DNA of 64,000 nucleotides. It comes from Takakia lepidozioides. Lineage: Eukaryota; Plantae; Bryophyta. This document shows, piece after piece, positions 1-49,009 of this stretch. The notes beneath the pieces are model-generated. The model saw only the letters and a program-made list of their open reading frames with translations, did not search any database and was not told the DNA's origin. The translations under genes and the position numbers were made by a program. Where the stretch lies: contig CM060731.1 of assembly GCA_030704615.1 (NCBI GenBank), positions 75,268,001-75,332,000 on the forward strand, read 5' to 3'. Position 1 is the first letter of the stretch. Each line of letters opens with the position of its first letter.

Positions 1-744
1 GTGGACCGGCAGGCAAGAAGTACCGGCCACTACGGGTCTTGTTGGACTCGGGAGCTCAGCCACTGATGTTGGGCAGAGCTGCTATTGCAGGTTTGGGCCT
101 CATGGAGGCGGATATGGAGCCTTGTCCTTTCAGATACAGACATCTCTGGGAGGATCAGAGCAGGCTCGGGGCATGACACGGCATCAGTTGGCCATTAGAC
201 TGCAGCCGGATCATCCTATCGATGGCTCAGTAATGCGAGCCAAGGCCATTATGACAGACGCGGTCTCTTACGATGTCCTTGTTGGTGGGGCAGTGTTATA
301 CCCCATGGGCTTCACACTGGACTTTTGGGAGGAGTCAGCATTCTACAGGCCGGATGGCAATCAGGGGATGGTAGTCGTGCACAGCTCCTTGTGACATTCA
401 TTGGGGGTATTGCGGCTGCCCAACGGGGCAAGATGCCAACACTAGCCGCCTTTACAGCTGCAGTTAGTTGGCTGGAGAGTTGCTGGAAGGCAATGCCCAT
501 GCAGAGGATGTGCCACCTCCAGCAGAGCAGGATGACATGCATGGTATGGCGGATTTGCCTGCCATGTTGCTCACACTCCATTGTGGGGTACGAGCAAGGA
601 TTGGCAGCAGGTTGCTGATCGACGGGTGAACAAGCCTGGGTAGAGGCTTTTTGTACCGTCAGGAGAGGAGGAGAGTGCGGGTATTGCACCTGGGACACCT
701 CAGTTGTCACATTGGATACCACACCTATTATGTGGCAGTATCGG

Positions 745-1650
745 ATGAAGGCATTTGCCTTCTGGACTTGTTTGGCGGGATCAGCGGCTGGCTGCTGATT
801 GGCGCTGGGGGACAGGCAGGTGTGCGGGTAAGGCGTTACCTGTATGTGGAGAGGGATGAGACTGACGACAGCGCGATTTTTCTCACTGCCATGTTGCTCA
901 GTTGGTACAAGCAATACCCTGCTTTGCTTTGCGCAGTTTAGGCAGTCGATTGATCTGGTAGTGGCAGGTTGGCCCTGCCAAGGGCATTCATCAGCCGGGC
1001 ATGGCAATGGATTGCGAGACTCGAGGATGGGTCTGTTTGGGAGATGGTGCGGGTTTTGTGCCACTTGCAGCTTCATCAAGCTGTATCTCCAGCAACATCT
1101 TGGAGAATGTGCCACTGATGGGTGATTCTCGGGCCAGGGGGTGATGGCCAGTGTGCATCAAGTCCGGTCGTGGCTTGGGTCAGCAGTGTTGCTGGATACC
1201 GTGCAGTGGGGACGGGCTCTATAGTCATGACTTTGGTGGACTAACTTGATGCCAACCCGCACTGCTCAAGCATGCATTGATGGGGTGCAGCGGCCAGCAC
1301 ACCTCACCGTGGATGGCATTTTGGAACACAGCGAGGCAGAGTCTCAACGTGTGAGACACGATGACCGTTCGCCTTTGGCAGTGGTCAACAGGGTGGGTGG
1401 GTAAACCACGAGCAAACATTACCTACACTGCTCAGCTTCCCAGGATCCCATGCTTTTCGGGATGTGGACCTGGCCTCTGGGGATGCTCAGTGCAGCAAGT
1501 TAGTGGAGCCTAATGCCGACGAGGCGAGAGCGGGCTATGGGTTTTCCACTGGACCACGGCGGTGTGCCTTCTCTTTCTGAGGCATCACGTAGTCAGGTGT
1601 GGGGCAAGCATGGATCTCAATTGCTTGACCTGGATTATCAGCTTGGCTAT
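745..1650 (+). pseudogene. Retrotransposon-embedded C5 cytosine DNA methyltransferase domain (DNMT3-like), frameshifted
   Basis: Motifs in canonical order across frames: I ICLLDLFGGIS (~750-785); II RYLYVERDE; IV IDLVVAGWPCQGHS (~948-993); V-like GLRDSR.GLF; VI ILENV (~1097-1111); VIII-like LLD...LWWTNL (~1190-1250); IX EPNADE.ERAMGF (~1506-1546); X-like GQAMDLNCL (~1602-1627). Confidence 0.88.
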
Positions 1651-4600
1651 GGGCTGAGCAACGGAGAGTGCGGAGTGCACTTCCCTTGACGATCTCTCGC
1701 CTAACGAGAGGTACAGGCATCGAGTGGGGGCGAGCGGTGAGGACCAGGGGGTGTAGACATCCATGGCAAAGTGGAGGGTGCTCGAGGGTCAGAGGGAGTG
1801 GCAGCCAAGGAAGCGTGTGATGGATGAGGTTGGGGATTCTTCTCGGGATGAGGGAGGTTTCTCAATGATGAGATGATGGGGCAGGATGAGGCCATTGTCA
1901 TTGAATGAGCAAGAAGGGAGTACTGTCAAGGGTTGTAGCATAGCAACCACGGGACGCGTCCTTCCTCTAAGCCCACTGGACTTAAGGTTACAGTTACGGA
2001 GGACAATTGGGGAGCCTGATATTGGACCCATTGTCACCGGAGAGGGAGAGAGACGAACGTATACCGGCGGTTCCTGAGGGCTTACAGGAATGCTTTGCCT
2101 TCAGTTTGAAGGACTTGGGAGCACTGAAGGGTCAAGAGATCCGTATTGAGTGGCCACTGACACGACCAATCTTCAGGGACCCTATAGTACAGTGACATAG
2201 AGAGGTCTTTGATTCAATGAGGACTCAAGATCTCGGGGAGGCAGGTTGGTGGAGCTCTCTGGTGGAGAGTATGCTTCAGCCACAGTGATGCCAGCAAGAA
2301 GGATGTCTATGGCAATTGGACGGAGAGACGTATGTGCGGTGATTACGGCCTGTAAAATCGTCAGACCAAGTCGATAGGTATGCAATGCCGACACCAGAGG
2401 AGATCTTTGATGCCATGGGCATTCCAAGGGCTTTAGCACGTTGGATTTACGATCCGGATATCACCAGTTGCGGATCAAGGAGGCGATAAATAAGCAAAAG
2501 ACGGCATTCTGGGGGATTCAATGAGAACGGGAAGGATTGCCTATACAGTGGCGGTTCTTACCATTTGGGCTTTTAAAAAACGCTCCGCTGAGTTTCAAAG
2601 AGTCATGCAGGAAAGGATTCTAGCAGGGGTGGAGTTTGCTCAGTGACTACATAGATGACATCATCATTTTAGTGCTACGGGGAGGAGCATGAGAGACACC
2701 TTTAGGGGGTATTTGAGCGCTTGAGGGCGCACGGATTGAAGTTAGATAGTTACCTCCGGGAGGAAAGTGCAAGTTTTTCCACAACCAGATTGAGTTATCT
2801 GGGTCAAATGATATATCTGGAGGATGGGGGTACAGCAGCTAAGGTAGAGTCATTGCACAGGTTCCACGCCCCACGGATGTGAGCCGAGTAGAGGAGTTCG
2901 AGCTTTCATGGGGTTAGCAAACTATTACAGACGGTTTGTTAAGGGATTTAGTGCCATTGCAAAGGCTCTAACCAAGCTGACCAAGGTGGACCAGGAAGAT
3001 AGAGTGAGTGCAGTGGGAAAGATGAGAAAGAAAAGCTTTTCAAGAGCTCAAGGCGAGGTTGACCTCGGCGCCCATCTTGAGACGACCTATCAGGGGGTGT
3101 CCTTTTCAGCTGCATACAGATTGAAGCATGCTGGGGCTTGGAGCGGTGCTCACACAGGTGGATGATGAGGGAAGAGAGTTCGTAGTGGCTTATGTTAGCC
3201 GCTCGAACAATGCTGCAGAGTCTAAGTATAGCTCATATGAGGGAGAATGCTTAGCTGCAGTGTGGGCCGTGGCACACTTCAGTGCTATCTATACGGCAAT
3301 CTCTTCACCCTTGTCACGGATCACCAACCACTCAAGTGGTTGATGGAGTCAGACAAGCTTACGGTGAAGCTTGCACGGTGGGCACTCATCCTTCAAGTAT
3401 GACTTTCAGGTGGTGCATCGACCGGGTTTGGTCAATCGCAATGCAGATGGGTTGAGCCGCAATCCATGCACGAGCCAGTAGGATGACACTGGAACTCGGT
3501 GGCATGGTGAGACGGACGAGGAGATGGTGCCCGGATGGCATGCATCTGCATTTCTGTGTATCTTGGCAGCGGAAGGCCAGGTTGGACCTGCAACAGGGAT
3601 GACTGTAGATCAAGTGTCTGAGGACCCTGAGGCCAGCAATGAGCAAGGTGGTGGCCAAAGATATACATGAGGATTCAGTTGTGTTGGACTACCTCCGCAC
3701 TGGAGACACTACAGCCACTGTGACTGCCAAGGAGAGGGATCGGATCCTACAACGAGCCAAGAGGTTCAAGTGGGAGGGGACACACCTACTCCGAGTGTGG
3801 GAGGATGGTCGAGTGAGGATTGTGCCTCACCCAACATAGCGGACACGGTTAGTGCGGCATGCCCATGAGGAGTTGGGGCATTTTGGGGTGCGACGCACTC
3901 ATAGTCTACTGCAGGGGCAGTATTGGTGGCGTGGTATGCACACAGAGGTGCAACAATTTGTGGCTAGGTGCATGGTGGTGTGACAGGGTGCGTGCTTCAT
4001 TCAACGCCCCTACTCCACAATTGCACCCTCTTCCGATCATGGGATTGGGCTACAGGTGGAGACTTGACTTCGCAGGGCCGTTGCCACTGACCATGCGCCA
4101 CAACAAGTACGTGTTGGTGATGGTGGAGCACTTCTCCAAGTGGATTGAATTGGTTCCATTGCCTGATAAGGCTAGTGAGGGAGCTGCGTATGCATTCTTG
4201 GATTGTGTGCTTAGCCGATTCGGTGCTCCAGCTGAGGTACTCACGGACCAAGGGAGAGAGTTCTTGGGGGAGTTTTCAGGTTTTGTGTGACAAGGCCTTG
4301 ATAGACCACCGCACCACTTCTCGGGATCATCCTGAAGCCGATGGCTTGGCAGAGAGAGTTGTTCAGACAGTAAAGAGAGGTTTGCGCAAGTATGGCTTGC
4401 AGAAGGGACATCTAGGAGATTGGGACCTTCAGTTACCCTGGTTAGCCATGGGCTACAGGTTCAGCAAGCAAGCATCACTTGCCTCCTTCTCACCATACTT
4501 TCTTCTCTTTGGCCGAGAGCCGGATTTACCTACATCCATTCGCAGAGAAGCTGCTACAGTTCTTAACCCTTGACGATCCGGATGTGTGGGCACATGCATG

Positions 4601-4959
4601 TGAGCAGCGTGCAGAGTTGTTCAAGAAGTCATGCCAATGGCTTTTGAGAACCTTGCCATTGCACAACACCGTGATACGTTGAGGTATGCTACCATACGTG
4701 GTGGGGGCTATCGTCCTGGGGTTTGGAGATTCAACCCTGGTGACTACTTCTATTTGCAGCAGACTGCTCCTATGACCTTGGATGTGACTACAGGACGTGT
4801 TATTTTGAGGGTTCGAGAGGTCTTGCCCTCAGGCATCTTGGTCTTGGAGGGCCGGGATGGCATAACTTGGAAGGACCATGTGCGTAATTGTGCGCCATGT
4901 CACCTTCCGAATGTCGATGGCAGGATAGACCCAAACTTGGCAGTGGTATCTGCAGTTTG

Positions 4960-5105
4960 AGGTGCATGTTGTGGGGGTCTGCTAGAGGGGCAGCCACCAT
5001 GCTGGTGGTGATCGATGCTCTAGAGGTTGGCATATGGGATGCTTGACTCCACCTCTTGAGATGGTTCCGGATGGGGAGTGGTTATGTCCACATTGCATTG
5101 GATAG
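4960..5105 (+). pseudogene. PHD finger at the C-terminus of the integrase
   Basis: Reads RCMLWGSARGAATMLV/DRCSRGWHMGCLTPPLEMVPDGEWLCPHC*, a degenerate C4-H-C3 PHD pattern with the typical GWH..CL.PPL..VP.G.W.CP.C. Confidence 0.88.
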
Positions 5106-5354
5106 TGGGAGTGGATACAACCATGGAAGGCTAACAAGAAACGCAAGGCCAAGCTACTAGGGGACCTTGAACACACGAGGTCTTGACTCAAGTTCATAGA
5201 TTGCAAGACGACGACTAATGATGGGGCTACTCTTGTACCCGGCCTCTTGGTCTATAGAGTTTGAGTACAACAGGGACAGTGATAGAGGACTTAGTACGGC
5301 TGTGGCTATTACATCTTGTAGCTATCTGGAGTTAGAGGGACCTATCCACCAGCT

Positions 5355-5731
5355 AGGGGGGCGATTGTGGCAGACTACTTTATTGTGCATATATGTGTGG
5401 TGTGGTTTGGACAGCGATGTAGTTGTGTAGCGATATGTATGCGCACGACAGCTGTCAAGTCAAATAAGCACAGTGTGAAAACAACTAGAATAAAGCTAGT
5501 TATTTGTATTTAACACTTGGATTTAGGTCAAGTGTTAAATCAAGTGTCAAGTTTAGTTTGACACCTTAACCGCCTTATCTTCACGAGAGCGGCAGTCGCG
5601 TAGCTCATCTCTCTCGAGTTGAGCTTGCGCGACCGAGCTCCTTCATGCGTTTAGATCTGAGTGTGCTTATGATGGGAGTGTAGGTTGTTGTGGGGTGGAG
5701 TCCCCATAGCGTGGGGTGCCCCTGGCTCGAC
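5355..5731 (+). repeat. Polypurine tract and 3' LTR of the DNMT-carrying element
   Basis: AGGGGGGCGA immediately precedes TGTGGCAGAC at 5366. The right end (~5731) is only approximate. Confidence 0.65.
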
Positions 5732-5792
5732 TTCTATTTTAAAGAGTAATAGCGATGGATTTCAATATTCTTGTGTTGAGAATGTGTGTCCT

Positions 5793-5880
5793 TGTAGCAG
5801 ACTACTTTATTGTGCATATATGTGTGGTGTGGTTTGGACAGCGATGTAGTTGTGTAGCGATATGTATGCGCACGACAGCT
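5793..5880 (+). repeat. 88-bp second copy of the LTR 5' end (matches 5366-5453)
   Basis: Near-identical direct repeat, TGT(G/A)GCAGACTACTTTATTG...CGCACGACAGCT. Confidence 0.9.
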
Positions 5881-6007: not shown

Positions 6008-6732
6008 GTTTTTTTTTGTTTTTTTTTTTTAATTATAAAGGGAAACACCTGGGAGCTACATCTCACAAATCAGGCCCCTTGATAGAGAGAGGAGAAAATA
6101 ACCTCAGGTCCACACGGCAAAAATCTGTCCATCCCATCCGGACGTGTCGGCTGCAGCGGGTGTGGCCGGGGTCCACCCTTGAGGAACGCGACGGCGAGGA
6201 AGGGACGGACGGCCTGGCCACTGTAGGTACTTCCCGCTGTCCGTCACTGCCCGTCCCATCCCTCATTCCTTCTCCCTGGCTATCATGGCTAAAACATGTG
6301 TGTAGGGTTTAGCCGGAGGGCTCTTTACGAGAGCTTCTCTTGCTAAACTTATATGTTGCGTCACGTGTGTACTCCTTGGCTATAATGGCTAAAACATGTG
6401 TGTAGGGTTTAGCCGGAGGGCTCTTTATGAGAGCTTCTCTTGCTAAACTTATATGTTTGCGTCACACATGTGTACTATCGCGTGTGAACATGTTGCACCG
6501 TCAGTCCCGTCCGTCCCCCTCCACACGTGTGGAGGGCCCACCACTATGGCTAGATGGGATGGACGGATTTTTGCTGTGTGAACCTGCCTTCAGTAACCTA
6601 GCCGTAAGGCTTTCTGATGCGACATTGCGCAAAGGAGGGGGAGAAGAGCGTACCACACCCGTCAAGTAGCAGGATTTGACCCAGGGTCATCCGGATGGCA
6701 CTCAGTGTACTTTACCAACTGAGCTACTGACT
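6008..6732 (-). mobile_element. tRNA-derived SINE, interrupted by a MITE
   Basis: Minus-strand head AGTCAGTAGCTCAGTTGG (A box) ... GGGTCAAATCC (B box). Body is homologous to ~39005-39215. A T-run at 6008-6030 is the A-rich tail. Confidence 0.75.
6105..6586. mobile_element. MITE with ~33-bp imperfect TIRs and 3-bp TSD (CCT)
   Basis: Left end CAGGTCCACACGGCAAAAATCTGTCCATCCCATC; right end GATGGGATGGACGGATTTTTGCTGTGTGAACCTG; CCT on both flanks. Internal ~100-bp tandem duplication (6278-6478). The SINE copy near 39080 shows the empty site. Confidence 0.85.
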
Positions 6733-7599
6733 ATTGGTTAGTTTAACCCTTAAGTGCCAAAACTCACTAGGGCTTCGCGTTGCTCCGCACTACTAGCGAC
6801 GAATTCTGAGAACTACGTTCAATTTTTCATAAAAAAAAAAGGGGTGGTCATCCCAGTGTTACATGCAGAGATCCCGTGTTTGGTTTTTTCTGGAATAAAA
6901 ATGGCGGATCTGCATTTCAATGTTCAATTTTCACAAGCTGCATCAATCAATAACAACATACCCAAGTACCCTTACATTCACTATATGAACTTTCAAGCAG
7001 CCACCATGGGATTGGATCTTGGTGGGTTAAGGCTAGCTTTTGACAATATTCATGTAAGTTCATCAAGGGCTCCATCCAAAGCCACACCATGAGAAATAAA
7101 CAAACATGTCCAAATTTAAGATGTTGAAGAAACTTGTGCACAGTGCTGCCTCTCTCATCAAACTCATTAAAATTCGTATTCACTTCCATCTTCAAGCTTT
7201 GGAGAAGCTACACCACCCAAACCCAGAATTAGGATAGCACTCTGATTTCCATCCACTATCACCAGAATCAGTCAAAAATCACCCCTTCAGTCAAGTGCAA
7301 TTGTGGGCTGACTTCCTACCTATGCCGGTAGACCCCACTATCAGGAAATGGTGGATGGTCTGAGTAGCTACACAGATCAATGAATGAAGCAAGACAAGTA
7401 TGAGAACCAAGCCTGCACTTGCCCAAAGCTCTTGTCAGAAATTTAGCCGGGGGCGGAAAGAGGAGGAGGACATGTTGGTGGAGTTGGCTCATGAAAGAAA
7501 AAAAGGAAGTCCATGTAAGGGAGACCCAAAGCCTATGGACACAAACAAGAAAAGATAGAGAGATAAGGAAAATATCCTAGCTTCATTGCACTACTTAAT

Positions 7600-10210
7600 G
7601 AGTTGTTATGGTAAATGGAACTTTGCTTTGCTCTTCCTCCTTCAAGTGCTTATAAGTCATCAGCTAGCGCAATGGAGGCTATCCATATCTTCATATCCTC
7701 TCACAGCAACTCAGTAAAAGACAAAGGGTTCCATGCACCTCTTTGCTTTTTCAGCCAGACTGTTGAAAACTCCCTTCGCATCCTTCATGCACCCACATTG
7801 GCAAACAGGTCAACCAGGGCAGTGACATCTGTACAATCCAGCTTTGACGATGTCACCATGGACCTCCTTCCCCTTTTCCAGAGCTTCTTTCATTGTCAGC
7901 TGCTAGCAGCAAGGCAAGGACCTATGCATGATTTGTTCTAGGAAACACCCAACTCAACTATTCACACTATTCTACAACAAAATGTATGCATCTGGTTGTC
8001 CACCTCAATACAGCAGTGAGACCTGGCTCCTTTCTGAGACCTCTGTCCCTCATCATTTTTTACACCTTCGCAGTATCGCCCCCCCTGCCAGCCTTGAAAG
8101 TAACACGTAAATAGCAGCATCCTGTGGATCCCATTTAGAAAGGCATTTTGCTGCACTTTCTGCCACCTCCACATTGCCATGAATTCTGCAAGCACCAAGC
8201 AAGGTCTGCCACACTGAAGCAGCTGGTTCGATTGGCATTTTGTTCATGAAGTCCTCTGCCACCTCCACTCAACCTGCGTGGCCAAAAAGGTCCACAATGC
8301 AGCCAAAATGCTCCATTGTAGGAGCGAGGCCATGATTTTGACTCACGGAATCAAACCATGCTGGGCATATCCTGCAATCATCGCATTCCACGACACCACA
8401 TTTCATTCAGCCATATTGTCAAATACTCCCTTTGCATCCTTCATGCACCCACATTTTGCATACATGTCCACCAGGGCAGTGTCCAGAATGACATTTGGTA
8501 CAATTCCAGCTTTGACGATGCAAGCATGGACCTCTTTGCCCTTTTCTAGAGCTGCCAGGCTTGCACACACACTGCAAACACACACAAACGTGATGTAGTC
8601 GAGCTTCGCCCCTTCGCACATCATTTGCTCATAGGTGTCCAAAGCCTCCATCCCGCGTCCGTCCTGTGCATACCCTGTGTTGGGCAGTGTTCAGAATGAC
8701 ATCTGGTACAATTCCAGATTTGACGATGTCACCATGGACCTCTGTCCACTTTTCCAGGGCTGCCAGGCTTGCACACACACTGCAAATGCAAACAAACGTG
8801 CCTTTAGTTGACCATCTACCAATGCAGGTTTCTTGTACTTATTTATCCACAAGGAATCATAGGTAATCTGGAGCTTGAAGTCCAGTCCCCTTGGATGAAT
8901 CTGGACCCACACTCTATCCCTGCTCCTTCAGCTATCCATGCCTCTGCACAAATCATGCATACATCCTTGTCTTGCTGCTAGCAGTTGACAATGACAACCT
9001 GCTCAACAAAGTTCTCTGGAATACAGCTATGCCCTTCGTAAGTAGGTTAAACTTATTAGCTTATCAAGGGAGCTACATGGGCATAGGACTATAAGATAAA
9101 ACCAAAACAGGGAGATGCTATGACAAAGACCACAAAAAGCACGGGAATAGACATACTCAAATTGGGCCGATTAAGACAATGTAAATAATGTCACAATGCC
9201 CAGATTGTCTTGATCAAGGGAGCAAGGCTTGCCGTATCCTTATGCGCCCTCACAAGAGCAAGTTGCAAAGACCCCAAGCTCTCTTTGCGGATACAAAAAA
9301 CTTGAACCAAATGTTGTTCTTGACAGGTGCAAGCATGAGGTGTTCATCTTGCATCTCAAGGCAGAATTGTCTATCTCGAAATTCTCAAGTTGTGGTGCTC
9401 AGGGAACTGACAGCGAGCAGTCGCCTGGATGTTGTTCCAAGCTCACGAGATTACTGTCTCCATTTTGAACCAACCTTTTGGTAACCCAAAGCTTGAGTAG
9501 CATATTTCAATCTGGAAGCTACAAAGACTTTTATGGAACTGCTACTGAATATTGTGGCTTCTCCTCATCTCTGTTACCTCCAACAGGCATTCACCTTTTT
9601 GCCTCGATTGTCCCACCATTGACGGGGGTCAGAAAAGTATTCATTCCATAGCTTCTCCTCGTCTCTGTTACCTATTTCTGGATACTTTCCTGTTGTCACA
9701 CTGGCAGTATCATGTCAAAGTCACTCCAAACTATCAAAGCTTCACTCAACCAGCTAACTTGCAGAGTTCTACATGAAAATTTAGGGCCGATTCTGATAAG
9801 AGGGGAAAACAGGGTGAAATGTGTTGAAGAAGGTGCCTGCATTAGCAGTGCCTCGTTCTATCAATTGTACCGCTGCCGCTGCTATTTCCAATTGACTGCG
9901 ATCGGAAAAGTGTTCACTCCAAAGTTTCTCCTCATCTCTACTATCTGTTTTTGGATATTTTCCTGCTGCCACATCGGCAGTAACTTGTCAAAGTCACTCC
10001 AAACCACCACAGATCCACCCAACGAGCTAACTTATAAAATTCAATATACATCTCAGGGCCGAGTCTGATGCAAGGGCACAACAGGCTGAAATAGGTCGAA
10101 GAAGAAGGTGCGCTTACCACATTGTCCATGACCTTGTGTCATCATCTAGCAAGATTTGGCCGACCATCACCCCAAAAAAACCTCTTGTGTGTGCTGCTTG
10201 TGTCTGTAGA
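7600..10210 (-). pseudogene. Rearranged PLS/E-class PPR plus OSB-type PDF-motif pseudogene fragments
   Basis: PPR motifs ALEKGKEVHACIVKAG..DTALVDMYAKCGCMKDAKGVFDNM (8403-8651). E domain MPIEPAASVWQTLLGACRIHGNVEVAESAA (8053-8268). PDF halves EEKLWNEYFSDPRQWWDNRGKKVN (~9590-9665) and HPRGLDFKLQITYDSLWINKYKKP (~8810-8900). Confidence 0.85.
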
Positions 10211-13059
10211 CGGGTAATGTCGGTTGGTCTGTGAGAACCACCAAGGTGCAGCTGAGTAGGTAGAGATTGAAAAAGGGCCTGCTAAGACCAAGCTGCGGAG
10301 AGGAGCCGATTGATTTGGAGGCAGAGTGGGAAGACCTGTACAACTATCGCAATCTGGCCGTGGAGATGGTGGTTAGGGGAGACGTGGCAGTCGCCCACCC
10401 AAAACAGTTTTTGTTTACTGTTGGAGATCCTGCCAGTCGCTGTTTTTTGTATTATAAACAGTTGGAAGATAGACTGGAGGCATTTCGACAATCTCATCTC
10501 CGGGATAGGCACTGGAATCGAGTACATGCTTGTGGTTTTCTCTCTGCTATTCCAAGGCTAGATGACAAACTGTTGTCGAGGTACCTAGATATGGTGCAAC
10601 CTCTGGTGATATTCTCATAAAGAAACTGCGCCACAACTTTGGCCGTATCGGTGCGAGAGACCATAGCTTCAGCCCACTTAGTGACATATTCAATTGCAAC
10701 AAGAATATATCGTTTCTGACCATTGCAAGAAGCAGAGGTGATAGGTCCAACAAAATCGATACCCCACTTCTCAAAAGGTGCCTGTGCAAGGATGGGAACC
10801 AGGGGCATAGAATTCGATCGCGCAGGTCGGCCAATACGTTGGCATGCATCACAATGACGCACATAAGCAAAAGCATCTTTAAATAGGGTAGGCCACCAAT
10901 AACCTGCCAATAATACCTTCCGTCCGGTGGCATCCCCTGCAAAATGACCACCACAAGAATCGGCATGACACCCCTCAAGTATCGTTGGAACCTCAGCTTC
11001 CAAGATGCAACGGCGCAATACACCATCATTCCCTAGCTTGTATAATGTGTCGCCAATAATTGTATAAGGCGCAGTCTTCTCTATCAGCCGACGCTTCTGC
11101 TTCTCAGTATAACCCTCTCGAAATTGTTGTAACGATAGGTAATTAAAAATAAGAGCATACTCTCCTGTCAGCACATCAACCACAAAAAAAGGCAGCATCT
11201 GGGAGAGAATCATCTATCGGTTCTTCGTCGACTTCCTTCGATAGACGACTTAAATGATCAGCATTGGCATGCTTGCGCCCAGGGCGAACCACAATTTTAA
11301 AAGTAAACTCTTGCAATAAAATAACCCACCGGGCCACTCTGCCACTCAGCTGAGGTTTATTAATGAGATATTTTAGTGCATCATGATCAACATGAAAAAC
11401 AAATGGATAACCCAATAAATAATGGCGATACTTCTGAACCGAATAAATCATGCCCAAACCTTCTCGTTCAGTGGTAGTATAATTTTCTCCGCCACAGCCA
11501 ATTGACGACTCGCAAAATATATCGGATGATCAAACGACTTTTCATCCTTCTCACTCAAAACGCTACCAATAGCATAGTTTGAAGCATCCACATAGACCTG
11601 AAACTCCTTAGTCCAATCGGGGGAAATCAAGATAGGCGCCTTTATCAACCGCCCTTTTAATTCTTGAAAAGAATGCTGACATTCCCTTGTCCACTGTTGC
11701 TCGGCATCATGTTTCAATAATTGTGTCAATGGTAGGGCAATCTTAGCATATCGACGGATAAAACGGCGATAGTACCCCACATGGCCCAGGAAGGCAGCAC
11801 CTCTGACACCGTCGTGGGGGTAGATAATTGGACAATAATCTCAATCTTAGTGGGGTCAGTCGATATCCCTCGAATTGATACAATATGGCCTAAAAGCTTC
11901 CCCTTGGTAACCAGAAATTGACATTTTCCGGCATTCAGAGAGATTCCATACTCCTTACAGTTTTGAAAGCACAGCTCCAACATCTCAGCATGTGTTGCTT
12001 TGCTGCTATAGACACAAAAATCATCCAAGAAGATCTACATAAATAGGCGCAAGTAATCCTGAAAAGCGGCAGTCGTTACTCGTTGAAACGTAGCAGGAGC
12101 ATTGCAAAGTCCGAAGGGCATGACTTTATAGGCATAAGTGCCCCAATCGGTCGTAAAAGTAGTCTTAGGCCAATCCTCTTCTGCGATCGTGATCTGATTA
12201 TAACCAGAAAAACCATCGAGGAAAGAATAACACTCATGGCCCGCTACTGCATCTAGAATAGTATCAGTGAAAGGTAATGGAAAATAATCCTTTCGAGTTA
12301 CAACATTAAGTTTCTGGAAATCCTGGGGGGTGCACTCCAGCCACGTGCGTGCACAGGAGGGGGTATTTTAAACCCCTCCATGTACAACATTATACATATA
12401 GATGGGGATTTATATCACCTTAAATATAATCTTACAGGAGGGGGTTATTGAATTTTAGGAGTAGTCTAGTGGTAAGGGTGTAGAATGTGTCGTGACGCAC
12501 GCGGGGATCAAATCGCGATGCACTGTTGTTTTGCTTTTTTTTTTTCTTTTCTCCCCGCGATCTGTCTCCCGCGGGCTCTCTTTTCCCTCCTCCCCCGCAC
12601 CCCTTCCGTGTCAGCTTGGTCTAGCAGGCCATGTTTCAATCTCTGCTCAATCTCGCCGTGCATGCCAGGGGGCAGTGCAGACAGGCCAGGGCAGTGTTCT
12701 TGAGAAGACCACCTTCATAGAACAAGGTAGCCTAACAAAATGAAGACGAGACACTCCCATGGATATTATGGAGTATATATCTTTATTTCCTTGGTTCGTG
12801 CTTTGGTTTCTAATGCACTACAACTCTTATGGCACGCCATCCATGCACTGAAGCTCGTTGCCTTCTTTCTTCTTTCTTCTTTGTGACCCCCTCTCTTTCT
12901 TGTTTCTTTTTTCCTCTTATCCCATAAGATCTTTGAGCTTCCTGCAGCCATTGTGAAGTACGATTTCATTTCATTGCTTTTCTTTCGTTCTGTTCCTCTG
13001 CGCCTCTCCACCTATCCTAAGCAGCTGATTGACTTTCAGAATTTTTCATCCCGCATGTG

Positions 13060-14000
13060 GAAACCGATATGCAGATGGTCAACTGGAAACAATAGCGGCA
13101 GCAACGCATTGATAGAACAAGGCACTGCTAATGAAGGTACCTTCTTCAACGCATTTCAGCCTGTTTTCCCTGTTAGTAGAGTCGTCCCTATTTTTTCATG
13201 TTGAATTCTGCAAGTTAGCTCGTTGGTGGATCTATGGTGGTTTTGGAGTGATTTTGTGCTCCATGTACCTTCTTCTTCAACCTATTTCAGTCTGTTTTGC
13301 CCTCTCATCATTAGGGTTTAGGGTGTTTGCTGGAAGAACTTCATGCCATCAGTGTCAGCTGCTAGTATCAAGGCTGAGGATGTATTCATGATTTGTCCAC
13401 AGGCAGGGATAGCTGAGGACCAGGGATAGAGGTCCAGATTCATCCAAGAGGGCCGGATTTCAAACACAAGTTTCTTTCTGCTTCCCTGTGGATCAATAGC
13501 TACAAGCAATCGCGCGAGGAGATGGTCAACTGGAAACATCAGCGGCAACAGTGCAATTGATAGAACAAGGCGATGCTAATGAAGGTACATTCTTCAACAC
13601 ATTTCAGCCTGTTTTTCCCTGTTATCATAGTTTTTCCTTGTTTTTGCCTGAAGGAGCAGGGATAGAGTGTGGGTCCAGATTCATCCACGAGGGTTGGACT
13701 TCAAGCTCCAGATTACCTTGATTCCATGTGGGTCAGTAGCTACAAGAAACCTACATGGGTAGATGGTAAACTAAAGGCAGCTATTGCAGCGGCACAGATG
13801 ATAAAATCAGGCACCTCAACCATGACCACAGCTTCTGAAAGAGGATCAAGAGAGGGAGTCCACAATGCCTCTTCTGACATTTCTGGGCATGTGAAGATAC
13901 TTTGTGCGGCAGACAGCCTGACAGAGGCTCTACAGATTCTAAACTAATGAGGCATTTTAGCAGATTCAGATATGTATGTCTGTCTCTTGCTTAAGTGCAT
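13060..14000 (+). pseudogene. PDF-motif/PPR-linker gene fragments (dispersed repeat family)
   Basis: HPRGPDFKHK at ~13441, SYKKPTWVDGKL, GHVKILCAADSLTEAL; homologous to 46200-47120. Confidence 0.8.
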
Positions 14001-14709
14001 CACTGTCACCAACCAGGGCAAAGGTGGGGCCACTCCTTGGATTAAAACGTATAAATATGTTGGCTTCCTTTAGCATGCAAAGGAGAGAAGGAAAAGACAT
14101 AAACAGTTCGGTTTTCCTTCAGACCTATGTTTGATCCAATCTCAGATGTGGGGAGGTTGATATTTTTTAGTGTGCAGTTTACCTTCCACTCTCAAACTTC
14201 TACAACTCAAAATTTGGCATTGGTAGTAATTCATCCCAATAGTGTCGAGTTCAATCTATTCGCAGCAGACTCAGCTGTAACTTTGGGAAATTTCATCAGC
14301 TAGGTTTGACAACCTACGGTGTTGAAGGGATTTGTAGAGGAACTCAGTGTATGGAGGGCTCACTCTGTTTTGGGTGATGGCGGCACGTTTTGCAGTTGGC
14401 TGGGCTTCACTGCTTGCTCACCGAAGACCATGGCGTGTCTCTCATATTGCAGCGGTACTGTTCATTCTCCTCGTCAGCTTGTGCAATCCTTATCTTTGGA
14501 GATGTACTTCAATGAAGGAAGGGCAGAGGGAGGATGGTTTCCAGTGGGCAGCTAGTTAGATTGTACTCATAAGACGTTGTTTGCCGTAGCCTTGTGGACC
14601 TTGACCCCGCGCCCAGTTTGAGCGGGAACAAAAGGGACAGAACCTACCTCTGTCAGGGGCTGACGTTGGTAGTAAGACTTACCTTCATATATAGAATTAA
14701 TCCGGGTTC

Positions 14710-15005
14710 CAATATCAGAGGTACCAATATCAGTTCTGTCGATCAACACATTGGCACACTAGGGGAACAAATTTTTGTCCATTATGATATAGTCCACAAT
14801 GGAACGTTCCCCAGTTTGGGATTTCTCACGAGTCCACTGCACTTGGTCACCTCTTGTCTTGTTATTCTAGGTCAAAAGCTGAAGCTCTTCCAGACAGTTA
14901 ATTAACCGTCTGCCATTAGAATTCAGCTCGTCCTCACCAGAAGACCCAATGATATCGTCCTGATGGAGCCCTTTGCCCACTTGGGCATTGAAGTCACCTT
15001 GCAAT
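14710..15005 (-). mobile_element. LINE ORF2 AP-endonuclease fragment
   Basis: Minus strand reads GDFNAQVG...ELNSNGRRLINCLEELQL and WTR...ERSIVDYII...DIGTSD, matching APE motifs GDFNA, S.IDY and SD(H). Confidence 0.8.
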
Positions 15006-15009
15006 AGCA

Positions 15010-15650
15010 CCACAGACATGAAGAGAAGCTTTGGAATGAGACACTTTTCTGACCCCAGTCAATGGTGGGACAATGTGGGTGGATGGTCAACTGGAAACAG
15101 CAGCGGCAACAACGCAATTGATAGAGCAAGGCATTGCTGATGAAGGTACCTTCTTCAACACATTTCAGCCTGAGGGCACCTTCTGGTTTGACCTGTTTCA
15201 GCCTGTTTTTCCTCTCATCCTCCTCAGCCCTGAAGCATATGTATTGAATTCTGTAAGTTAGCTCGTTGGGTGGATCTGCGGTGCTTTGGAGTGACTTTGC
15301 AAGTTACTGCCGAGGGTGGCAGCATGACAGTACCTAAAAAAAGATAATAGAGATGGAGAGAAGCTTTCAAGGAATGAATACTTCTCTGACCCTAGTCAGT
15401 GGTGGGACAATATGAGTAGATGGTCAACTGGAAATAGCAGCGGCAGCAGCGCAATTGATAGAACAAGGGACTGCTAATGAAGGTACCTTCTTCAACACAT
15501 TTCAGCCTGTTTTTCCTTGTTATCAGAGTCGTCCCTAAATTTCCAGATGGCCGGATTCCAAGCTCCAGATTACCTATGATTCCATGTGGAAGGATAGCTA
15601 CAAGAAACCTGCATGGGTAGATGGTCAACTGGAAGCCATTGTAGCACCTG
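15010..15650 (+). pseudogene. PDF-motif gene fragments (same repeat family)
   Basis: Repeated EKLWN.YFSDPSQWWD, WVDGQLETAAA..QLIEQG and GTFFNTFQPVF segments. Confidence 0.75.
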
Positions 15651-18600
15651 CAAAGGCATGATGTACGCATTGTTAGTGTGGAGGAGGGGTAGCTGTTGAT
15701 GCAGGGAGAGGATCGTGGGTGCAAAATCATCCAAGAGGGCCAGATTTGGAGCAAGGAACAGCGCTGGCAGGAGTTCTATAAATATGATCCACAACGGTGG
15801 GACAATATTGTCAACAGGGTGAGTTTTCTTCATGCAACATCGTAGGGAGTTTGACAGAACTTTGTATTTAAATATGTTAGTGTGGAGGGAGGGCTAGCCG
15901 CTGATGCAAGGATGGACTGTGGGTTCAGGACCACCCAAGAGGGCTACCAGCAGTGGAAGTAGCAGCATTTGGTCAATAGCAGCAGCAAGAATTAGCAACG
16001 TCAAACTCATCAATCAGGTACTTGCTTCTGTATACATTTCATCCTCTTTTCAACGTAGTCCCTGCTTGGACAGCCTATAGGGTTGTATAAAACAGGACTT
16101 TGGAACCTTCCAACCCGGGTGCTTTGTTATTGGTCTATCGAGGTCTGATTTGAAATGTTTTCATTGCATTTTGCAGGTGAACTCATCATGGAAGAAGAGT
16201 TGGAAGTAAAAGTCCTGCTCGTTGGAGGAGATGCATCACCAAACAGGCTTGGTTCTGTGTTCACTATGCAAGGTGTCACATACAAATGCATCTGAGCAGA
16301 AATTCTAGGTGATGAGCTTGTCTCAGCAAAATTTCATTTCCTTTCCATGGGGGGTAGTGTCCTTTCAGCCAAGCAGGAAGAGAGGATGGTTCTGAAAGAG
16401 GATACTGTACACATTAAGATTTCAGACCAAAATGATGGGGACCAAGGATTGAAAAGACCTCTATCTTCCAGTGGTTCTACGATCTTGCGTGGGGACAGAC
16501 CAGGCGAGGACCCGACACCAGGTCTACCAAGATGAGGGATAGACCCTGATACACCCTTTGCTGGCGATGGTGGAAATGAAGACCATGCACATGAGCATGC
16601 ACTTCAGCAGAGATCAAGTAGATTGTGCAGCAAGTTGGCTACATCCAACGATATTCAAAAATGGCAGAAAGAGATTAGAGCCGTTGAAAGGAAAATCTCT
16701 GCAGAAGGACGATGTGACAAGTTTGAGCTGATGACAAAGGATCAACAAGGACAAGCAATGTTCCACATATGGTGTGTTGAGTGTGAGGATGTTTATGCAC
16801 GGTCTGGGAAAAACAAACCATATGATGCATGTGTGCAACTTTATGAGATCTCATTTGAGGAGTGAGGGGCATCGCATAGCCTATGAGAGGCGTCATGGGA
16901 AGGGATCATCACAATGTGTTATCAGCCCTGTAAATGCAGATGAAGCATTAGATGCAAATTGGGTTCGGATTGTGCTGTATTTTTTTTGTTGATGAGGAGA
17001 CTGCGATCCAAACTACAAACAGGAAAGGTAGACCAGGGAAAACCTGCAGAGGAGCAACCAAAGGCACTTGGTATTTGGGCAGGGTTCAAAGAATGCGGAA
17101 GAAAATCAATAAGCGGTTTGTAGAATGTAGGGATTCTGTTGATTTATTGGAGCGTCCTTCTCATATGGAGATTGGGTGAGCAAGGTACCAAAAAATTCGA
17201 GGAGGGGTCTATACGTACGATTTGACGGATAACATGATGGTTGATTTGGATTCCATTATCGCGTTAGCATGTTTAAAGTACAATGTCAAGTCAAACACAT
17301 ATGTTCTTGATGCAAATGATCGAAAAGTCTTTGACAACTTTATCAAAGGCAAATATTTTTTTTAATTAATTTGTTAGATTTTATTATGTTTTAAATGAAT
17401 AAATTTGATATAATATAAAAACATACATATACATATTGGAGGGTTATTTTTAATGATGGAAAATGAGAATATACATACAGAAGGGGGTACTTTCTAAAAA
17501 TTGTAAATTTTTGTATATTTACAGGAGGGGATTTTATAATCTTCAAAAGTATGTACAGAGGGGTATAAATTATCCAAGGACCCGTATACAGGGGGTTTTT
17601 TATTAGGTGACGAACGCACGTGATACGCACAGTTTATAAAGAGTGCACCCCCCGGGCCGGAAATCTTGACAGATTCGTACTTTGCGATTGTTTCATGGGC
17701 ACGACCACTATAGGCAATACCCAATCGCTATAAGGTACAGGATAAATGAATCCAACAGCTAACAATTTGTCCAACTCTTCTTAACCATCAGAGAATATTT
17801 AGGATTCAATCGATGTGGCGTTGTCGTACTGGCATTGCTCCTTCCTCCAATATAATGCGATGCTGACAAATTTATGGGGGCACACCCCGAAGATCAGTAT
17901 AGGTCCATGCAAAAGCCGTACGATGTTTATGGAAAAACTCCTTCCACATAGACAATTCATTGATGGGATTGCCGCAATCATCATTTGATGGGATTGCCGC
18001 AGAAATTATAATGTCATTGGGCTCAGCAGCTGTATTCAAATTCAAGGTTTGATAAGGGTCCTTCTTTATTAATGGAGCACGGTTATCATCAGCCGAATCA
18101 TACCACGCGATATCTTCCGACGTGGTGGCCTCTTCCCACTCAGATTCATGCTGCACCATATAAGAAGATCGGGCTCCCTCCCATCGCAAGATAGCATCAT
18201 CAGAGTCACTATCAAAATCACCATGCCAGGGGTACTCTCCTAGATTAGCACAACGGTAGATCCGCCGGCTCCGTGTATGTTTTAGGTGACAATGGTAGAA
18301 CTTGAAGATCACTATCCGTATCACTGGTCCTCTCGTCAGCTTCAGAGATAAACTCAGATTCGATCTCTTATGTCTCCCTATGATATGCTACTAGGTACAT
18401 TTGCAACACCACCTTTTGTTCTCTTTTTCCCAGAGTCAGAGTGTCTTTCCCCCAATCATTTTTAGCTTTAGATTGGAACAACCATGGTCGTCCTAATAAG
18501 ATGGGGTAAGAATAGGCCGAGACATTTAGTCGGAAGACAACATAATCAATGGAATACTCAATAGCAGCAATTATAGTTGGCACGGCAGTCAGGACGCCCA

Positions 18601-20396
18601 TTGGTTTGACACGGCTTTGATCAGCCATCCGTAACACCAATCGAGTGTTCTGTAAACCACTGAGTCCTAGCTCCTCCATTGTGTTGGAACTCATTAAATT
18701 GACACTAGAACCACCGTCAATTTGAACTCCAGTAATAACAACGTCATCTATTGTCACATCAAGGACGGGGGCACCTGGATCCGGATTGAGTGTGGATATA
18801 CTCACTTCATGAAAGTCGTTTTTCATTGCCTATTTCCGTACTAGAGATGACTGCAACAGTTGCCGCAAAGAAATAGCAGGTTGCAACATGTCCAGGTCTT
18901 TAAGTATATCATAATGAACCAAGCCCTTAGTCAGTGCCATGACCCTTCTCCGCCGAGACCCCTTGGGGTGTCATATCTTGCCATTGCCCATTTTCGGACC
19001 AGTATACTTCCCTCTATTTCTCCGCTGGACTGGCTCCGTTCTAGATTGGGGTATCGCAACTGAGATGACAGGATCCGGGTCGATAGAGTCCACGATAGTG
19101 CAAGGTGGATGGACAACCAAACTAGGCGATATCATCGTTGGTATCGGATGAATATCGGGCATAATGGGCAAAGATCGTTGTACCTCCTCCATTGGCTTGG
19201 AATTCATGCTATCGGGGGTTTTTAAGGCAGAGTTTTCCACGATAGGGTCCATCGGCAATAACTTACGAGCCCTGGTGGTAACCGCTTTAACCATGGGATT
19301 ATCTGTCTCAGCATTAAAATAATAAGATTGGAAAGGGGTATCGGCTGCTTCCATCTTGCCTTTGCCTTTTAAGGTGGCTATCTTATCAGCCAAATTCATA
19401 TCACTCACACATTCTTGCACTGTTACTCGGTTCACAACTCGATTGGTATTAGTATTTCTAAAAGAATGTGACGGCCTTGCAGTTGGTGGTACTGGTCCTG
19501 AACCAGGAAATGTAGGGATTGATGAGGTTTGCTGATGGATGGGATTTTGGGGGTATGGACTCTCACATTGTTCAACAGTATGTCCCTGACCTCCACAACG
19601 CCCACAAAGCGGGATATAATCAACCGGGGCTTTCGGATTAGGGCATTCGCTGGCAATATGTCCCATCTCATGACAACGATAGCAAATCGGATATTGGCCA
19701 TTCCTCAATCGTCGAGCCGGTGGCCGATAAGGAGCATTGGTCTGTTGTGGATACATTTGCTGCTGTTGGCCTCCTCCGCCCCCATAGGTTTGATTGGAGA
19801 ACAGCCGCAATTGGTACTGCCGCCATTGGTACTAGTACAATAGGTGGTACAATAGGTGGTGCAGGGGCTGCAATAGGGGACGCAATAGGTGGTGCCGATG
19901 CAGCTGCCTGTGCGGCTAATAATGCTCGTCGTGCTATCCTGACTGCCAATCGATCAGATCTGGCTTTAGCCTTATGTTCGGCGGTTACGGGAGATTCCCT
20001 CATACCCCATAACCCCTTCTTCTTAATTGACAATACAAGATGATCTCCTCGATTTCTTGCAACAGTCAATTCAAGTGTTCTTAACGTTTCCTCTTGTTCA
20101 GGCAATAGTTGAATCTGCTCCTCCTGCGCTATCGCAAGAGCTAGCATCTCCATTTTTTGTTAACTGAGAACAAGGAGGCTCATCCGTCTCCCACGCCTTC
20201 TTCTGAGTCCAAAAACATTATGAAATCTCTGTCTTTTTATGTTGCTTACATAAACTACAATAAGGACATAGTTTGAAACCAGGTGGGGAAACCTTACTAT
20301 TACGAATGACTTCCCCCGTCATCTCGTAATTCCTCAACAGAAAGTAATTATCTTGAAATTTTAGTAAAGCATCACTATAGCAAACCGCATCGTCTT

Positions 20397-22306: not shown

Positions 22307-22630
22307 CTACACACATAAGCAGCACACACAAGAGGTCATTTTGGGTTGATGGTCGGTCATATCCTCCATGGATCATGACACAACGTCAAGGACAATGTGG
22401 TGAGGGCACCTTCTTCTTCGACCTATCTCAGCCTGTTTTGCCCTCTCATCAGACTCGGTCTTGAGATGCATATTGAATTCTGTAAGTTAGCTCGTTGGGT
22501 GGATCTGTGGTGGTTTGGAGTGACTTTGACAAGTTACTAATGTGGCAGCAAGAAAGTATCCAAAAACAGATAACAGAGATGAGGAGAAGCTTTGGAATGA
22601 ACACTTTTCCGACCCCAGTCAATGGTGGGA
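22307..22630 (+). pseudogene. 5' fragment of the PDF/PPR gene family
   Basis: Homologous to the reverse complement of ~9895-10210; encodes NRDEEKLWNEHFSDPSQWW. Confidence 0.8.
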
Positions 22631-23644
22631 AGCTGCTATGTTCATGTCTCGTGCGCTCATGAGCATACCCGCCACCAGTTTCTTACTTCTATCACCTCTC
22701 TCACCTCCCTCACCCCTCTCACCAGCCTGTCTATTGTCCTGGAGGTTTTACTCCTCCGCAAGCTCCAGCAGGTTCTGATCTCTTGGGAAGTCGTCAAGTC
22801 GCACTACATTGTCGTCCTCTGCTTCTGTCAGCTAAATGAGCCGCCCTTCTGCATATCCGAGGTCTGACATCTCCAGCAGCCTCCACCGCATCCGTGTTTT
22901 CTGAAACTGCCTGCAAACCCAATATCTCTGCTTCCAGTCTCCCAAGTGGTTTTACTGGCTAAGCCATGGGCTCATTTTGCTTCATCAGCTTCCGGACTCT
23001 AGGTGGGCTTTTCTGAGGCGATTTCTGAGGTGTTCTATGAGGAGTCGCCTGCCTCGATGCACTTCCACCTTGCGAGCGCAGCACCCGGGCAGGAGTATCC
23101 AAAGTTGTTTGTGTTGGCTCGCCCCCCTGCGATCCCTCCCCAGCTCCCATGTCAAACAAACAGGAAAACATGACACACTGCACGCAAAAAAAAAGGTGTA
23201 AAAGGAATAGTGCGTACGGAGTGTTTTACATCCGCGAAGCACGAATCTCTCACTGGTGGGCGATCCGAGTCTCCGGATAACGAGGTCTGCATTTCCTGCA
23301 TGAGACGGAGCTTAAATCGTTCCCAAAATCCCGCGTCATCCTTCTCTGCGCCGGAGTCGCCTGACCTTCCACAAACTCTATGCTATCACTATGTTATATA
23401 AGGAGAGGAAACGCAGGAGAACGTCACTGCACAAGGGCAAGGAGCGAGAGAGCGAAGCGGTGGAACATGCAACCACTGTGCACGAGCAGATGCGTAAGCA
23501 GCCACGTCTCCCGAAGCGTTGCCACCGTCCACCACTTTCTGCCGTATGGGTGATGAAGAGATTGTGACCCCTGACACGTTCGCACGGATGAAATCGACTG
23601 GAACACGACGCGTGCCTGTTCAAGCCACCAATAGAAGACGCTTT

Positions 23645-25135
23645 ATCCGAATTGCGGCACCGAAATACCGTTCCGTTCACCGGATGCTGTTCCCGGAGCA
23701 GCCGACATTGAATGAACTATCCGCACATCATGAAACCCAACCGCCATGAAATTCCCCTGCCTACCGACATTCAACAGTCAGGTCGGTACATTTCATCAGC
23801 GGACGGATGAATTTCGGCGTCGAAATTCATCCTATGCAAGTGCTTTCATACACAAACATATGAATTTCGGTGCCGCAATTCATCGCTTCCCCAGTCCTCA
23901 TCCATCATGAGCAAACCTGTCAGTCGGATATCGGAGCTCGAATTAATTCCGGGACAGTGAAGAACGCTGCGCTTAGGCACATTTCATCCATATTTCGGCG
24001 CCGAAATTCATTAAGAATATCTCCGTCCGCGCGTAGACAAGGTGAAATCATCCATATTTCGGCGCCGAAATACATCCAGCGCGAAGACTAAATCGGCACC
24101 ATGCTATGCTTTGCCGCCATCATTGCCCCTCACGGTTGCTGTCCATGCCTGTTGGACTTGCCATGTCTGGACTGTTTAGTATAATTTCGGCGCCGAAATT
24201 ATACTTTATGTGCGGCAACGTCCTGTACGAAAAATGACCACTTAATGGATACTGTCAGTTTCAAATGAAAACAACGGCTAAAATGCAATTAATTTTCCCC
24301 CAACATGAAAAAATAATCCCCTTTCGTCATTGGATAACGGCCTTTTGAAAGACATAAGGGGTTGAATGTGCCGATTTCTCCATTTAATGCAGAATATTCG
24401 TGTTATCTTTGTTTGAATGGGTTATTTGCAACGAATTTCGGAACCTTACATCATCCAGAAGCAAGAAGTAAGTGTCGGGTTCGGACAAATTTCGGCGCCG
24501 AAATTCATCCGTCGCATAGAAAATGTAATATTGGAGTTACCTTTGTGGACAGTAAAGATGAATTTCGGCGCCGAAATTCATCCATTTCAAAGAAAAATAA
24601 ATATTGGAGGGAGGGCATTGGATTAATTTCGGCGCCGAAATCCAGCGCTCAAACCCTTAAAAGAAATTGGAGGGATGACTTCGGATGAATTTCGGCGCCG
24701 AAATTCAGCTGACGCAAGGAAAAAAAATGGAAAGAGGACTTCGGATGAATTTCGGCGCCGAAATTCATCCAACGTCGTCCCTCCATTATTTTTTTTCCCA
24801 TGTGAACGATGAATTTCGGCGCCGAAATTCATCCCTACTGTCGATTCAGGATTACTCTCATTCGGATGTCGGCACCGAAATCCGGACACGTGGTGAATCA
24901 TGACTCTAATCACGAACACATTCATCCGTATTTCGGCTCCGAAATTCATCCCTTATGTGCAGAAATAATTTCATGAAGAATATGTTCATCCGAATTTCGG
25001 CACTGAAATCCATCCGTCGGGTGCTTGCTCAGTTTCATGAGGTGAACAAATTTCGATTTCTGTCGCCGGAATTCATACCGTGGCTTCCAAATCTGTTACA
25101 TGACAGACATGTTCATCCAGATTTCGGTGCCGAAA
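23645..25135. repeat. Array of ~19 palindromic motifs, consensus GATGAATTTCGGCGCCGAAATTCATC, at ~60-70 bp period
   Basis: Best copies at ~23806, 23990, 24053, 24182, 24487, 24557, 24621, 24683, 24743 and 24808; degenerate copies continue to ~25130. Confidence 0.92.
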
Positions 25136-48960: not shown

Positions 48961-49009
48961 AGAGCATTTCAAGCAGTCATGTAACGTATGTTTGTCTCTT
49001 GTTTAAGTG

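Follow-up and report, generated by a model that had tools for sequence, protein, structure and literature searches.

Introduction

The closest described relative of the system considered here is KnitGypsy-Dnmt3 of Klebsormidium nitens (de Mendoza et al., 2018; PMC5890265), a Gypsy element in which a DNA methyltransferase (DNMT) domain with Ka/Ks below 0.2 lies in the open reading frame (ORF) of the reverse transcriptase (RT), the repeats have a DIRS-like layout and the enzyme showed no activity in yeast. The same paper describes SymbioDIRS-Dnmt3 of Symbiodinium, a retrotransposon with split repeats and a Dnmt3-like domain, the de novo CG methylation seen in yeast being that of the Symbiodinium enzyme, and already proposes that such elements methylate their own cDNA (PMC5890265). 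It has been a puzzle since 2018 why a transposon should carry the very class of enzyme by which it is silenced, all the more as the sole Gypsy example showed no activity in yeast. Here we analyze 64,000 nucleotides of Takakia lepidozioides (contig CM060731.1, positions 75,268,001 to 75,332,000 of the forward strand; the whole stretch is called the window below), and confirm that window positions 1-5877 are the 3′ part of a Ty3/Gypsy element encoding protease, C5-methyltransferase, RT, RNase H, integrase and a PHD finger. We think, with a probability of roughly 0.55, that the window holds a broken member of a Gypsy lineage long established in green plants; its DNMT is likely active, would travel with Gag and protease and would methylate the element's own cDNA, and the PHD finger is predicted to be a separate tether to unmodified histone H3 tails.

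Other described systems share parts of this equipment. Later papers restate these findings for 'streptophytes' (PMC12344493; bioRxiv 10.64898/2026.05.21.726589, as 'streptophytes (Gypsy-DNMT3)'), and the REM1 paper and a 2011 review, both cited by de Mendoza et al. for earlier DNMT-RT fusions, may report related elements (PMC5890265). The EpiLTRs of Cymbomonas and Euglena are likewise Gypsy-type elements that pair a DNMT with a chromatin reader, but they combine a DNMT4-related enzyme with an adenine methyltransferase and a chromodomain, whereas the element studied here has a DNMT3-like domain and a PHD finger (10.64898/2026.05.21.726589). PHD fingers in transposons are known from Gypsy-7a_cRei (PMC9940879), from Ginger1 (PMC2836005) and from a eukaryote-wide survey (10.1101/2021.11.30.470311). 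Gypsy-7a_cRei of Chlamydomonas resembles our element as a Gypsy polyprotein with a PHD finger, and its insertions are skewed to intergenic DNA; its description, on which the comparison is based, differs in mentioning neither a DNMT nor split ends (PMC9940879). A literature search, which covered text and, for most matches, listings alone, returned nothing on land-plant or chlorophyte members, on the pairing of DNMT and PHD, on a stop codon between DNMT and RT or on the mechanism at the ends. What our analysis adds is the range of the lineage from chlorophytes to bryophytes, the two positions that the DNMT can occupy, the conserved stop and the end anatomy.

A Methyltransferase Carried by the Whole Family

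The methyltransferase domain lies at 747..1667 (+), where it was recognized by its motifs, by Pfam and by alignment, and is broken by 12 frameshifts and by two stops (1222 and 1228), both of which fall within motif VIII. The first-pass annotation of the window had listed motifs I, IV, VI, VIII and IX in order, and they are present in that order, yet spread over three frames: LDLFGG at 762 (frame 3), GWPCQ at 967 (frame 1), ENV at 1103 (frame 2), WWTNL at 1234 (frame 1) and ERAMGF at 1528 (frame 1); its motif X gave a partial match only. The Pfam check that it had proposed placed both DNA_methylase (E=2.5e-6, 27.6 bits, cut-off 22) and PHD (E=9.3e-8, 32.4 bits, cut-off 24, at 4983-5099) above their cut-offs. 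In a frameshift-aware alignment the domain is 63.5% identical to that of Marchantia P0008 over 296 residues.

Relatives of this domain were found in many copies. A protein search with the window domain returned 21 proteins, seven of which, named Marchantia polymorpha, are ORFs with Gag, zinc knuckle, protease and DNMT; one Marchantia cluster has 18 members, the listed ones lying on several chromosomes including V. Among 78 metagenome loci, several of which are duplicates, DNMT is followed by RT in 37, and eight of the protease-DNMT type extend to the PHD finger; the largest family among these loci, the main one, corresponds to Sphagnum fallax P0402, with L003 identical to it at 100% of 141 residues. 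From a sequencing run in which the window's family is present, 46,038 contigs were mapped to the element and covered 30 of 30 bins, and a 5009-nucleotide contig under a second organism label is collinear with window positions 446-5370, DNMT included. The order protease-DNMT is common to proteins of Marchantia, Sphagnum, Closterium (P0237) and K. nitens (P0277), Closterium P0336 has the order DNMT-RT, and related elements also occur in Tetradesmus records (the Tetradesmus deserticola transcript product P0129). Viral contigs yielded distant C5-methyltransferases only, with 24-45% identity in the best segment and mostly part of the query covered. Judged from these sequences, the methyltransferase is a domain of the family and not a later insertion, and the window copy is a broken member of an abundant moss/liverwort-type family, the closest relatives with a species name being those of bryophytes. 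The element is not special to land plants, because K. nitens, Closterium and Tetradesmus records carry related ones.

The damage to the window copy is odd in pattern: its methyltransferase domain has 12 frameshifts and two stops, compared with 14 frameshifts and 82 stops summed over 26 other loci, which were drawn from the better-scoring ones. Since this copy is unusually indel-rich, and since its two A repeats (see below) differ at 1 of 85 bases, part of its indels may be assembly errors. The same local indel-richness could be taken to mean that the methyltransferase had inserted later into this one copy, or that the assembly is chimeric there. That reading has a negligible chance of being right: the domain is collinear with intact Marchantia ORFs, with the 37 metagenome loci and with the 5009-nucleotide contig, so that its absence from other copies, named beforehand as the observation that would count against a family domain, was not what we found, and later insertion is refuted. 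Elsewhere in the window, at 52593-52771, lies an isolated 179-bp piece of the same domain, 94% identical to 984-1162 and in one frame when compared with the Marchantia domain.

DNMT3 Affinity, Catalytic Residues and Selection

A profile built from 24 domains and compared with solved structures scored best with DNMT3A (99.5 bits), followed by DNMT3B (about 90), DRM (62.5) and M.HhaI (40.9). The model of the L022 domain has a pLDDT of 95, its best Foldseek TM value is 0.74 at 21% identity, and all 30 rows shown are DNMT3A, B or C; profile scores and predicted fold thus bear out the DNMT3-like assignment. Host plant DNMT3 proteins (PpDNMT3a/b) share the DNMT3-type catalytic domain but differ in a C-terminal DUF3444 (PMC6453930), which Pfam reported neither in 21 relatives of the element nor in five further ones. 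As to the hosts, the earlier statement that DNMT3 is retained in seed-free plants stands, although gymnosperms keep it too (PMC6453930).

The catalytic residues are kept in the family: the Cys of the active site, the Glu of motif VI and the two Arg of motif VIII are invariant in 24 of 24 aligned sequences, which had been selected as full-length domains. Between subfamilies, dN/dS is 0.15-0.20 in ten pairs, all sharing member L022 and hence not independent, and 0.15 and 0.19 in two algal-type pairs (dS 1.5-1.9; three pairs are saturated), whereas six pairs within one decayed family gave 0.38-0.75. The methyltransferase is under purifying selection, as the proposed dN/dS check of this domain brought out.

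Selection could also maintain such a domain for DNA or RNA binding, as in recognition of an end palindrome or shielding of the cDNA, or for RNA methylation, with DNA methylation being minor. This possibility, which we hold to be doubtful, would fit the inactivity of the K. nitens domain in yeast (PMC5890265), an apparently unusual route of integration, for which a further DNA-binding factor might be required, and the motif IV variant GWECQ, found in place of GWPCQ in 60 of the best 150 representatives (GWPCQ in 40, with 31 unmatched by the search pattern). The invariant Cys, Glu and Arg and a well-preserved motif for binding of S-adenosylmethionine speak against it, as does the CG methylation by the related SymbioDIRS-Dnmt3 domains (PMC5890265).

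Between Marchantia elements and those of K. nitens, Closterium or Tetradesmus the domain is only 36-40% identical, which suggests an old capture rather than recent theft from a land-plant gene. The tree distances of DNMT and RT correlate, with a Mantel r of 0.68 over 75 elements and of 0.57 among those of the second architecture described below. Such a correlation is expected from long co-inheritance, although tests of this kind are inflated by the relatedness of the sequences.

A Conserved Stop Between Methyltransferase and RT

At 1941..1949 (+) the window reads TAG CAA CCA, which ends ORF1 and is a likely point of readthrough or reinitiation. A stop followed by CAA is found in 36 of 38 copies, the window included (TAG in 26, TAA in 10; the exceptions are L043 and L046), 129-150 bases upstream of RT; these 36 copies represent three subfamilies, not 36 independent events. 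The stop separates Gag-protease-DNMT from RT-integrase-PHD, DNMT and RT being in frame with each other in most loci. Five of the six Marchantia ORFs listed end 68-82 residues past the DNMT, and K. nitens P0277, annotated as partial, likewise ends just after it. In the window and in the L022 family the stop is followed by CAA CCA or CAA CTA, which we take to be the CARYYA readthrough context, and L022, L054 and L055 have no ATG between stop and RT. With this stop in between, the two products are likely separate, the DNMT being made together with Gag and the PHD finger together with integrase. The wording 'one polyprotein' of the first-pass annotation is therefore not upheld, and its expectation of a consensus in frame with pol holds for the frame of DNMT and RT but not for continuity, given the stop.

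Some relatives have a second architecture, in which RT, RNase H, DNMT, integrase and PHD follow each other in a single ORF (28 of the best 150 representatives, for example Tetradesmus P0129); in chlorophyte-type relatives, the DNMT thus stands between RNase H and integrase. A tree of RT plus RNase H was built from 57 sequences, namely all 26 DNMT-before-RT or pol-only elements and 31 of the 61 elements with the other architecture; under midpoint rooting it unites the 26 in a single group (SH-aLRT 96). Two observations on algal-type elements may be added here. One ORF of 3329 codons spans a whole element of this type (L064:1865-11854), with no stop between the gag and pol regions, and the Pol proteins P0121, P0086, P0087 and P0094 have a conserved tail past the PHD finger, which contains PPF/PPL and DP-F/W motifs and, judged by eye, looks like an amino-methyltransferase fold.

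The first-pass annotation saw in the element a module of writer and reader, in which the PHD finger guides the DNMT to the chromatin of the insertion, as the ADD domain does in animal DNMT3, so that the new insertion or its flanks become methylated. In its favor, the DNMT of the second architecture lies directly before integrase and PHD, DNMT and PHD are retained together across the lineage, and a DNMT remaining in the pre-integration complex could reach the target. In the element's own group, however, the DNMT precedes the conserved stop, and RT, RNase H and integrase separate it from the PHD finger; unlike in animal DNMT3, the writer has no reader next to it, because the stop splits the ORFs and the PHD finger lies past the integrase, which leaves the comparison with ADD a loose one. 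A PHD finger is also found in transposons for which no DNMT is described (Gypsy-7a_cRei, PMC9940879; Ginger1, PMC2836005). On this evidence a guided module seems unlikely to us, and we prefer a DNMT that would act with Gag and a PHD finger that would act with integrase.

The PHD Finger at the Integrase End

The PHD finger, placed after the integrase by the first-pass annotation, is frameshifted and lies at 4957..5102 (+), where Pfam, a structure profile and alignment agree; it is borne out in the window and as a feature of the family, being present in 107 of the 120 listed relatives of the integrase tail, among them proteins of Marchantia, Calypogeia, Sphagnum, Coleochaete and K. nitens. Its best matches among solved structures are CHD4, PHF12, KDM5A/B, ATXR5 and PHF21A. 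PHD fingers that read methylated K4 have a cage Trp at the residue two before the PHD His, a position occupied by Gly in 115 of 125 sequences. Gly at this position, together with the CHD4-type matches, presumably marks a PHD finger of the type that binds unmodified H3.

The Remaining Domains and the Place Among Gypsy Elements

Upstream of the methyltransferase lie an aspartic protease at 3..367 (+), with DSG at 45, truncated at the left edge of the window, beyond which gag lies, and recognized by a weak Pfam match (Asp_protease_2, E=0.038) and by tblastn with a Marchantia protease, and a linker at 368..746 (+) collinear with Marchantia P0008; frameshift-aware alignment gave 49.8% identity to P0008 and five frameshifts for the two together. 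Downstream follow a frameshifted RT at 2091..2816 (+) with YIDD at 2648 (RVT_1, E=1.9e-6, under its own cut-off), RNase H at 3104..3466 (+; Pfam E=5e-15) and an integrase at 3849..4927 (+), identified by Pfam and alignment, with H2C2 zinc finger (Integrase_H2C2, E=4.7e-13), DDE core (rve, E=2.5e-11) and C-terminal part. The order protease-RT-RNase H-integrase and the DDE integrase are those of Ty3/Gypsy elements, and together with the Pfam matches to RNase H, rve and Integrase_H2C2 they bear out the Gypsy assignment. Frameshift-aware alignment of the pol part gave 27 frameshifts and six stops against P0050, and 31 and five against P0045; the whole copy has about 44 frameshifts and eight stops, in agreement with its earlier description as frameshifted, and as assembled it cannot work. 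The domains do lie within the extent first given, 1..5105, but the element continues to 5877.

DIRS elements use a tyrosine recombinase. Membership in DIRS/PAT was rejected on account of the rve integrase and of 4-bp target duplications in relatives, and Pfam scans of P0388, P0129 and P0050 showed no recombinase family; the DDE integrase and the duplications likewise set the element apart from SymbioDIRS-Dnmt3 (PMC5890265). Membership in Chromovirus/EpiLTR was rejected because a PHD finger instead of a chromodomain follows the integrase, with no Chromo or Dam match in Pfam scans of the same three proteins. The NCGN target preference reported for REXdb Phygy is not matched by the two duplications seen in relatives.

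KnitGypsy-Dnmt3 is a Gypsy element with an unpermuted, intronless Dnmt3-like domain, purifying selection and DIRS-like repeats (PMC5890265), and our element shares the unpermuted Dnmt3-like domain with its key residues, the purifying selection on it and the layout A1...B1-A2-B2. The K. nitens proteins P0277 (knuckle-protease-DNMT) and P0093 (integrase-PHD) are similar too. The window element differs in its land-plant-type host, in a domain only 36-38% identical and in that the authors placed the DNMT in the ORF of RT (PMC5890265), whereas here it is not in the same ORF, the conserved stop splitting the two. The term 'PHD' is absent from the main text and three supplements of that paper, although the domain may be drawn in its Fig. 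4c (PMC5890265). The window element probably works like KnitGypsy-Dnmt3 and belongs to the same lineage.

Split Ends and a Possible Route of Integration

The 3′ end of the element is composed of repeated units. A polypurine-tract-like run at 5355..5364 (+) is followed, as in relatives, by repeat A (5366..5450, +; 85 bp, TG...CA; beyond 5450 contigs cease to match and continue into differing flanks), by repeat B (5453..5792, +; about 340 bp, starting TGTCA; the same unit is the 5′ end of the element in relatives) and by repeat A′ (5793..5877, +; one difference from A in 85 bp), with which the element ends. The palindrome GACAGCTGTC at 5447..5456 spans the A|B junction and is a predicted integrase attachment site; at this junction a palindrome of 10-16 bp is found in six of six copies, with its central GC changed to AT in two. 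The 5′ end of relatives is B alone in all 14 rows (12 of them distinct), A never preceding it, and A-B-A′ is complete in L010, L026, L041, L048 and the window; deviating ends are those of L016 and L020, which finish with A alone, and of L008, L011 and L020, without a 5′ B. The ends are thus TG...CA, but with a split B at 5′ and A-B-A′ at 3′ in place of two full terminal long terminal repeats (LTRs). Target duplications of 4 bp flank both relatives in which both ends are present (L041, L026; the window copy is without its 5′ end). The B|A′ junctions vary, and some retain remnants of the primer site or of the polypurine tract: L032 and L033 still have the initial bases that follow the 5′ B, and L026 has a portion of the purine run. 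This anatomy is that of copies other than algal-type loci, whose contigs loop or end.

No tRNA-type primer site was found after the 5′ repeat in relatives, and ARAGORN found no tRNA gene in the 64-kb window. The first 16 bases downstream of the 5′ B can pair with a site that lies 163-177 bases before B ends, in L035 and L041 at 16 of 16 positions, a self-complementarity that fits self-priming as described for Tcn1 (PMC6317226).

Because of the split ends, the A|B palindrome and the 4-bp duplications, the copies suggest integration from a circle, and the simplest reading would be an ordinary LTR (A+B), joining of the cDNA ends and integration at the internal palindrome. The split ends point to an integration route that is non-standard for LTR elements, and programs that need two terminal LTRs and a duplication (as in PMC6317226) would presumably miss such elements or misplace their boundaries. 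A more elaborate version for this green-plant-old clade, in which the element integrates as a circle by cutting its own LTR palindrome, methylation by the Gag-level DNMT3 picks which of two palindromes is cut and pre-silences the copy, and the PHD finger tethers integrase to unmethylated H3K4, strikes us as improbable.

In the sequence of events that we favor, ORF1 (Gag-protease-DNMT) would be made in excess, and RT-RNase H-integrase-PHD would arise through readthrough or reinitiation. Self-primed reverse transcription would produce an ordinary cDNA with A+B as its LTR, its ends would be joined, and integrase would cut within the left LTR at its A|B palindrome, giving B...A-B-A′. The DNMT would methylate this extrachromosomal DNA before insertion, and the PHD finger on the integrase is predicted to act as a separate tether to unmodified histone H3 tails.

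Several observations weigh against this proposal. No methylation by the K. nitens DNMT was seen in yeast, a result that its authors call inconclusive (PMC5890265). An in-frame ATG stands two codons after the stop in 32 of the 36 copies, the Sphagnum-type ones, so that reinitiation is possible and readthrough is not the sole route, and the intact relatives P0388, P0228, P0236 and P0336 run from DNMT into RT without a stop. The self-priming match beat at least 198 of 200 shuffles in six of 13 copies, all of one subfamily, and failed in the other seven. Products of the form B-A-B...A, none of which is present among the 12 distinct 5′ ends, should also arise from a symmetric two-LTR circle, and the fixed polarity is thus unexplained by the circle model. 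The clarity of the dN/dS values suffers from a dS near saturation and from the one member shared by the ten main pairs, and the DNMT tree, built without a host DNMT3 outgroup, does not place the bryophyte and K. nitens groups as sisters. The observed/expected CpG ratio, which without a same-genome control is no test of self-methylation, is 0.27-0.59 for copies of the land-plant type and 0.35-0.97 for those of the algal type.

Marchantia polymorpha, with its many annotated Gag-protease-DNMT ORFs on several chromosomes, offers a genetic model with mapped methylomes in which the proposal can be approached, and the two DNMT positions in related elements amount to a natural experiment that bears on the partner of the enzyme, Gag or integrase. 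Note also that the Marchantia ORFs inflate host counts of DNA methyltransferases and PHD genes.

Other Features of the Window

Host genes in the window encode an AIG1-type GTPase (26414-27988, -), a GH32 invertase (29905-32636, +) and a chlorophyll a/b-binding-like protein (36583-37431, +), and a broken PPR gene with a hint of an E motif lies at 8053-8900 (-), with relatives in inverted orientation near 45277-45997, 37 kb away. Fragments of another Gypsy element at 10494-12322 (-) and 18368-19831 (-) contain integrase, RNase H, RT and a zinc knuckle, with no DNMT match there. A MITE-like element (6105-6586) is bounded by terminal inverted repeats of 34 bp (91%) and contains a 100-bp tandem repeat. 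Three related copies (6641-6740, 39141-39213 and 58829-58928; 75-80%) look tRNA-derived by eye and are perhaps a short interspersed element, although ARAGORN finds no tRNA in them. A dispersed repeat family with many segments of 80-96% identity occupies 13073-15756, 22371-22645 and 46027-48971, and at 23635-25041 about ten copies of the palindromic repeat AATTTCGGCGCCGAAATT follow each other at a spacing of roughly 60-70 bp.

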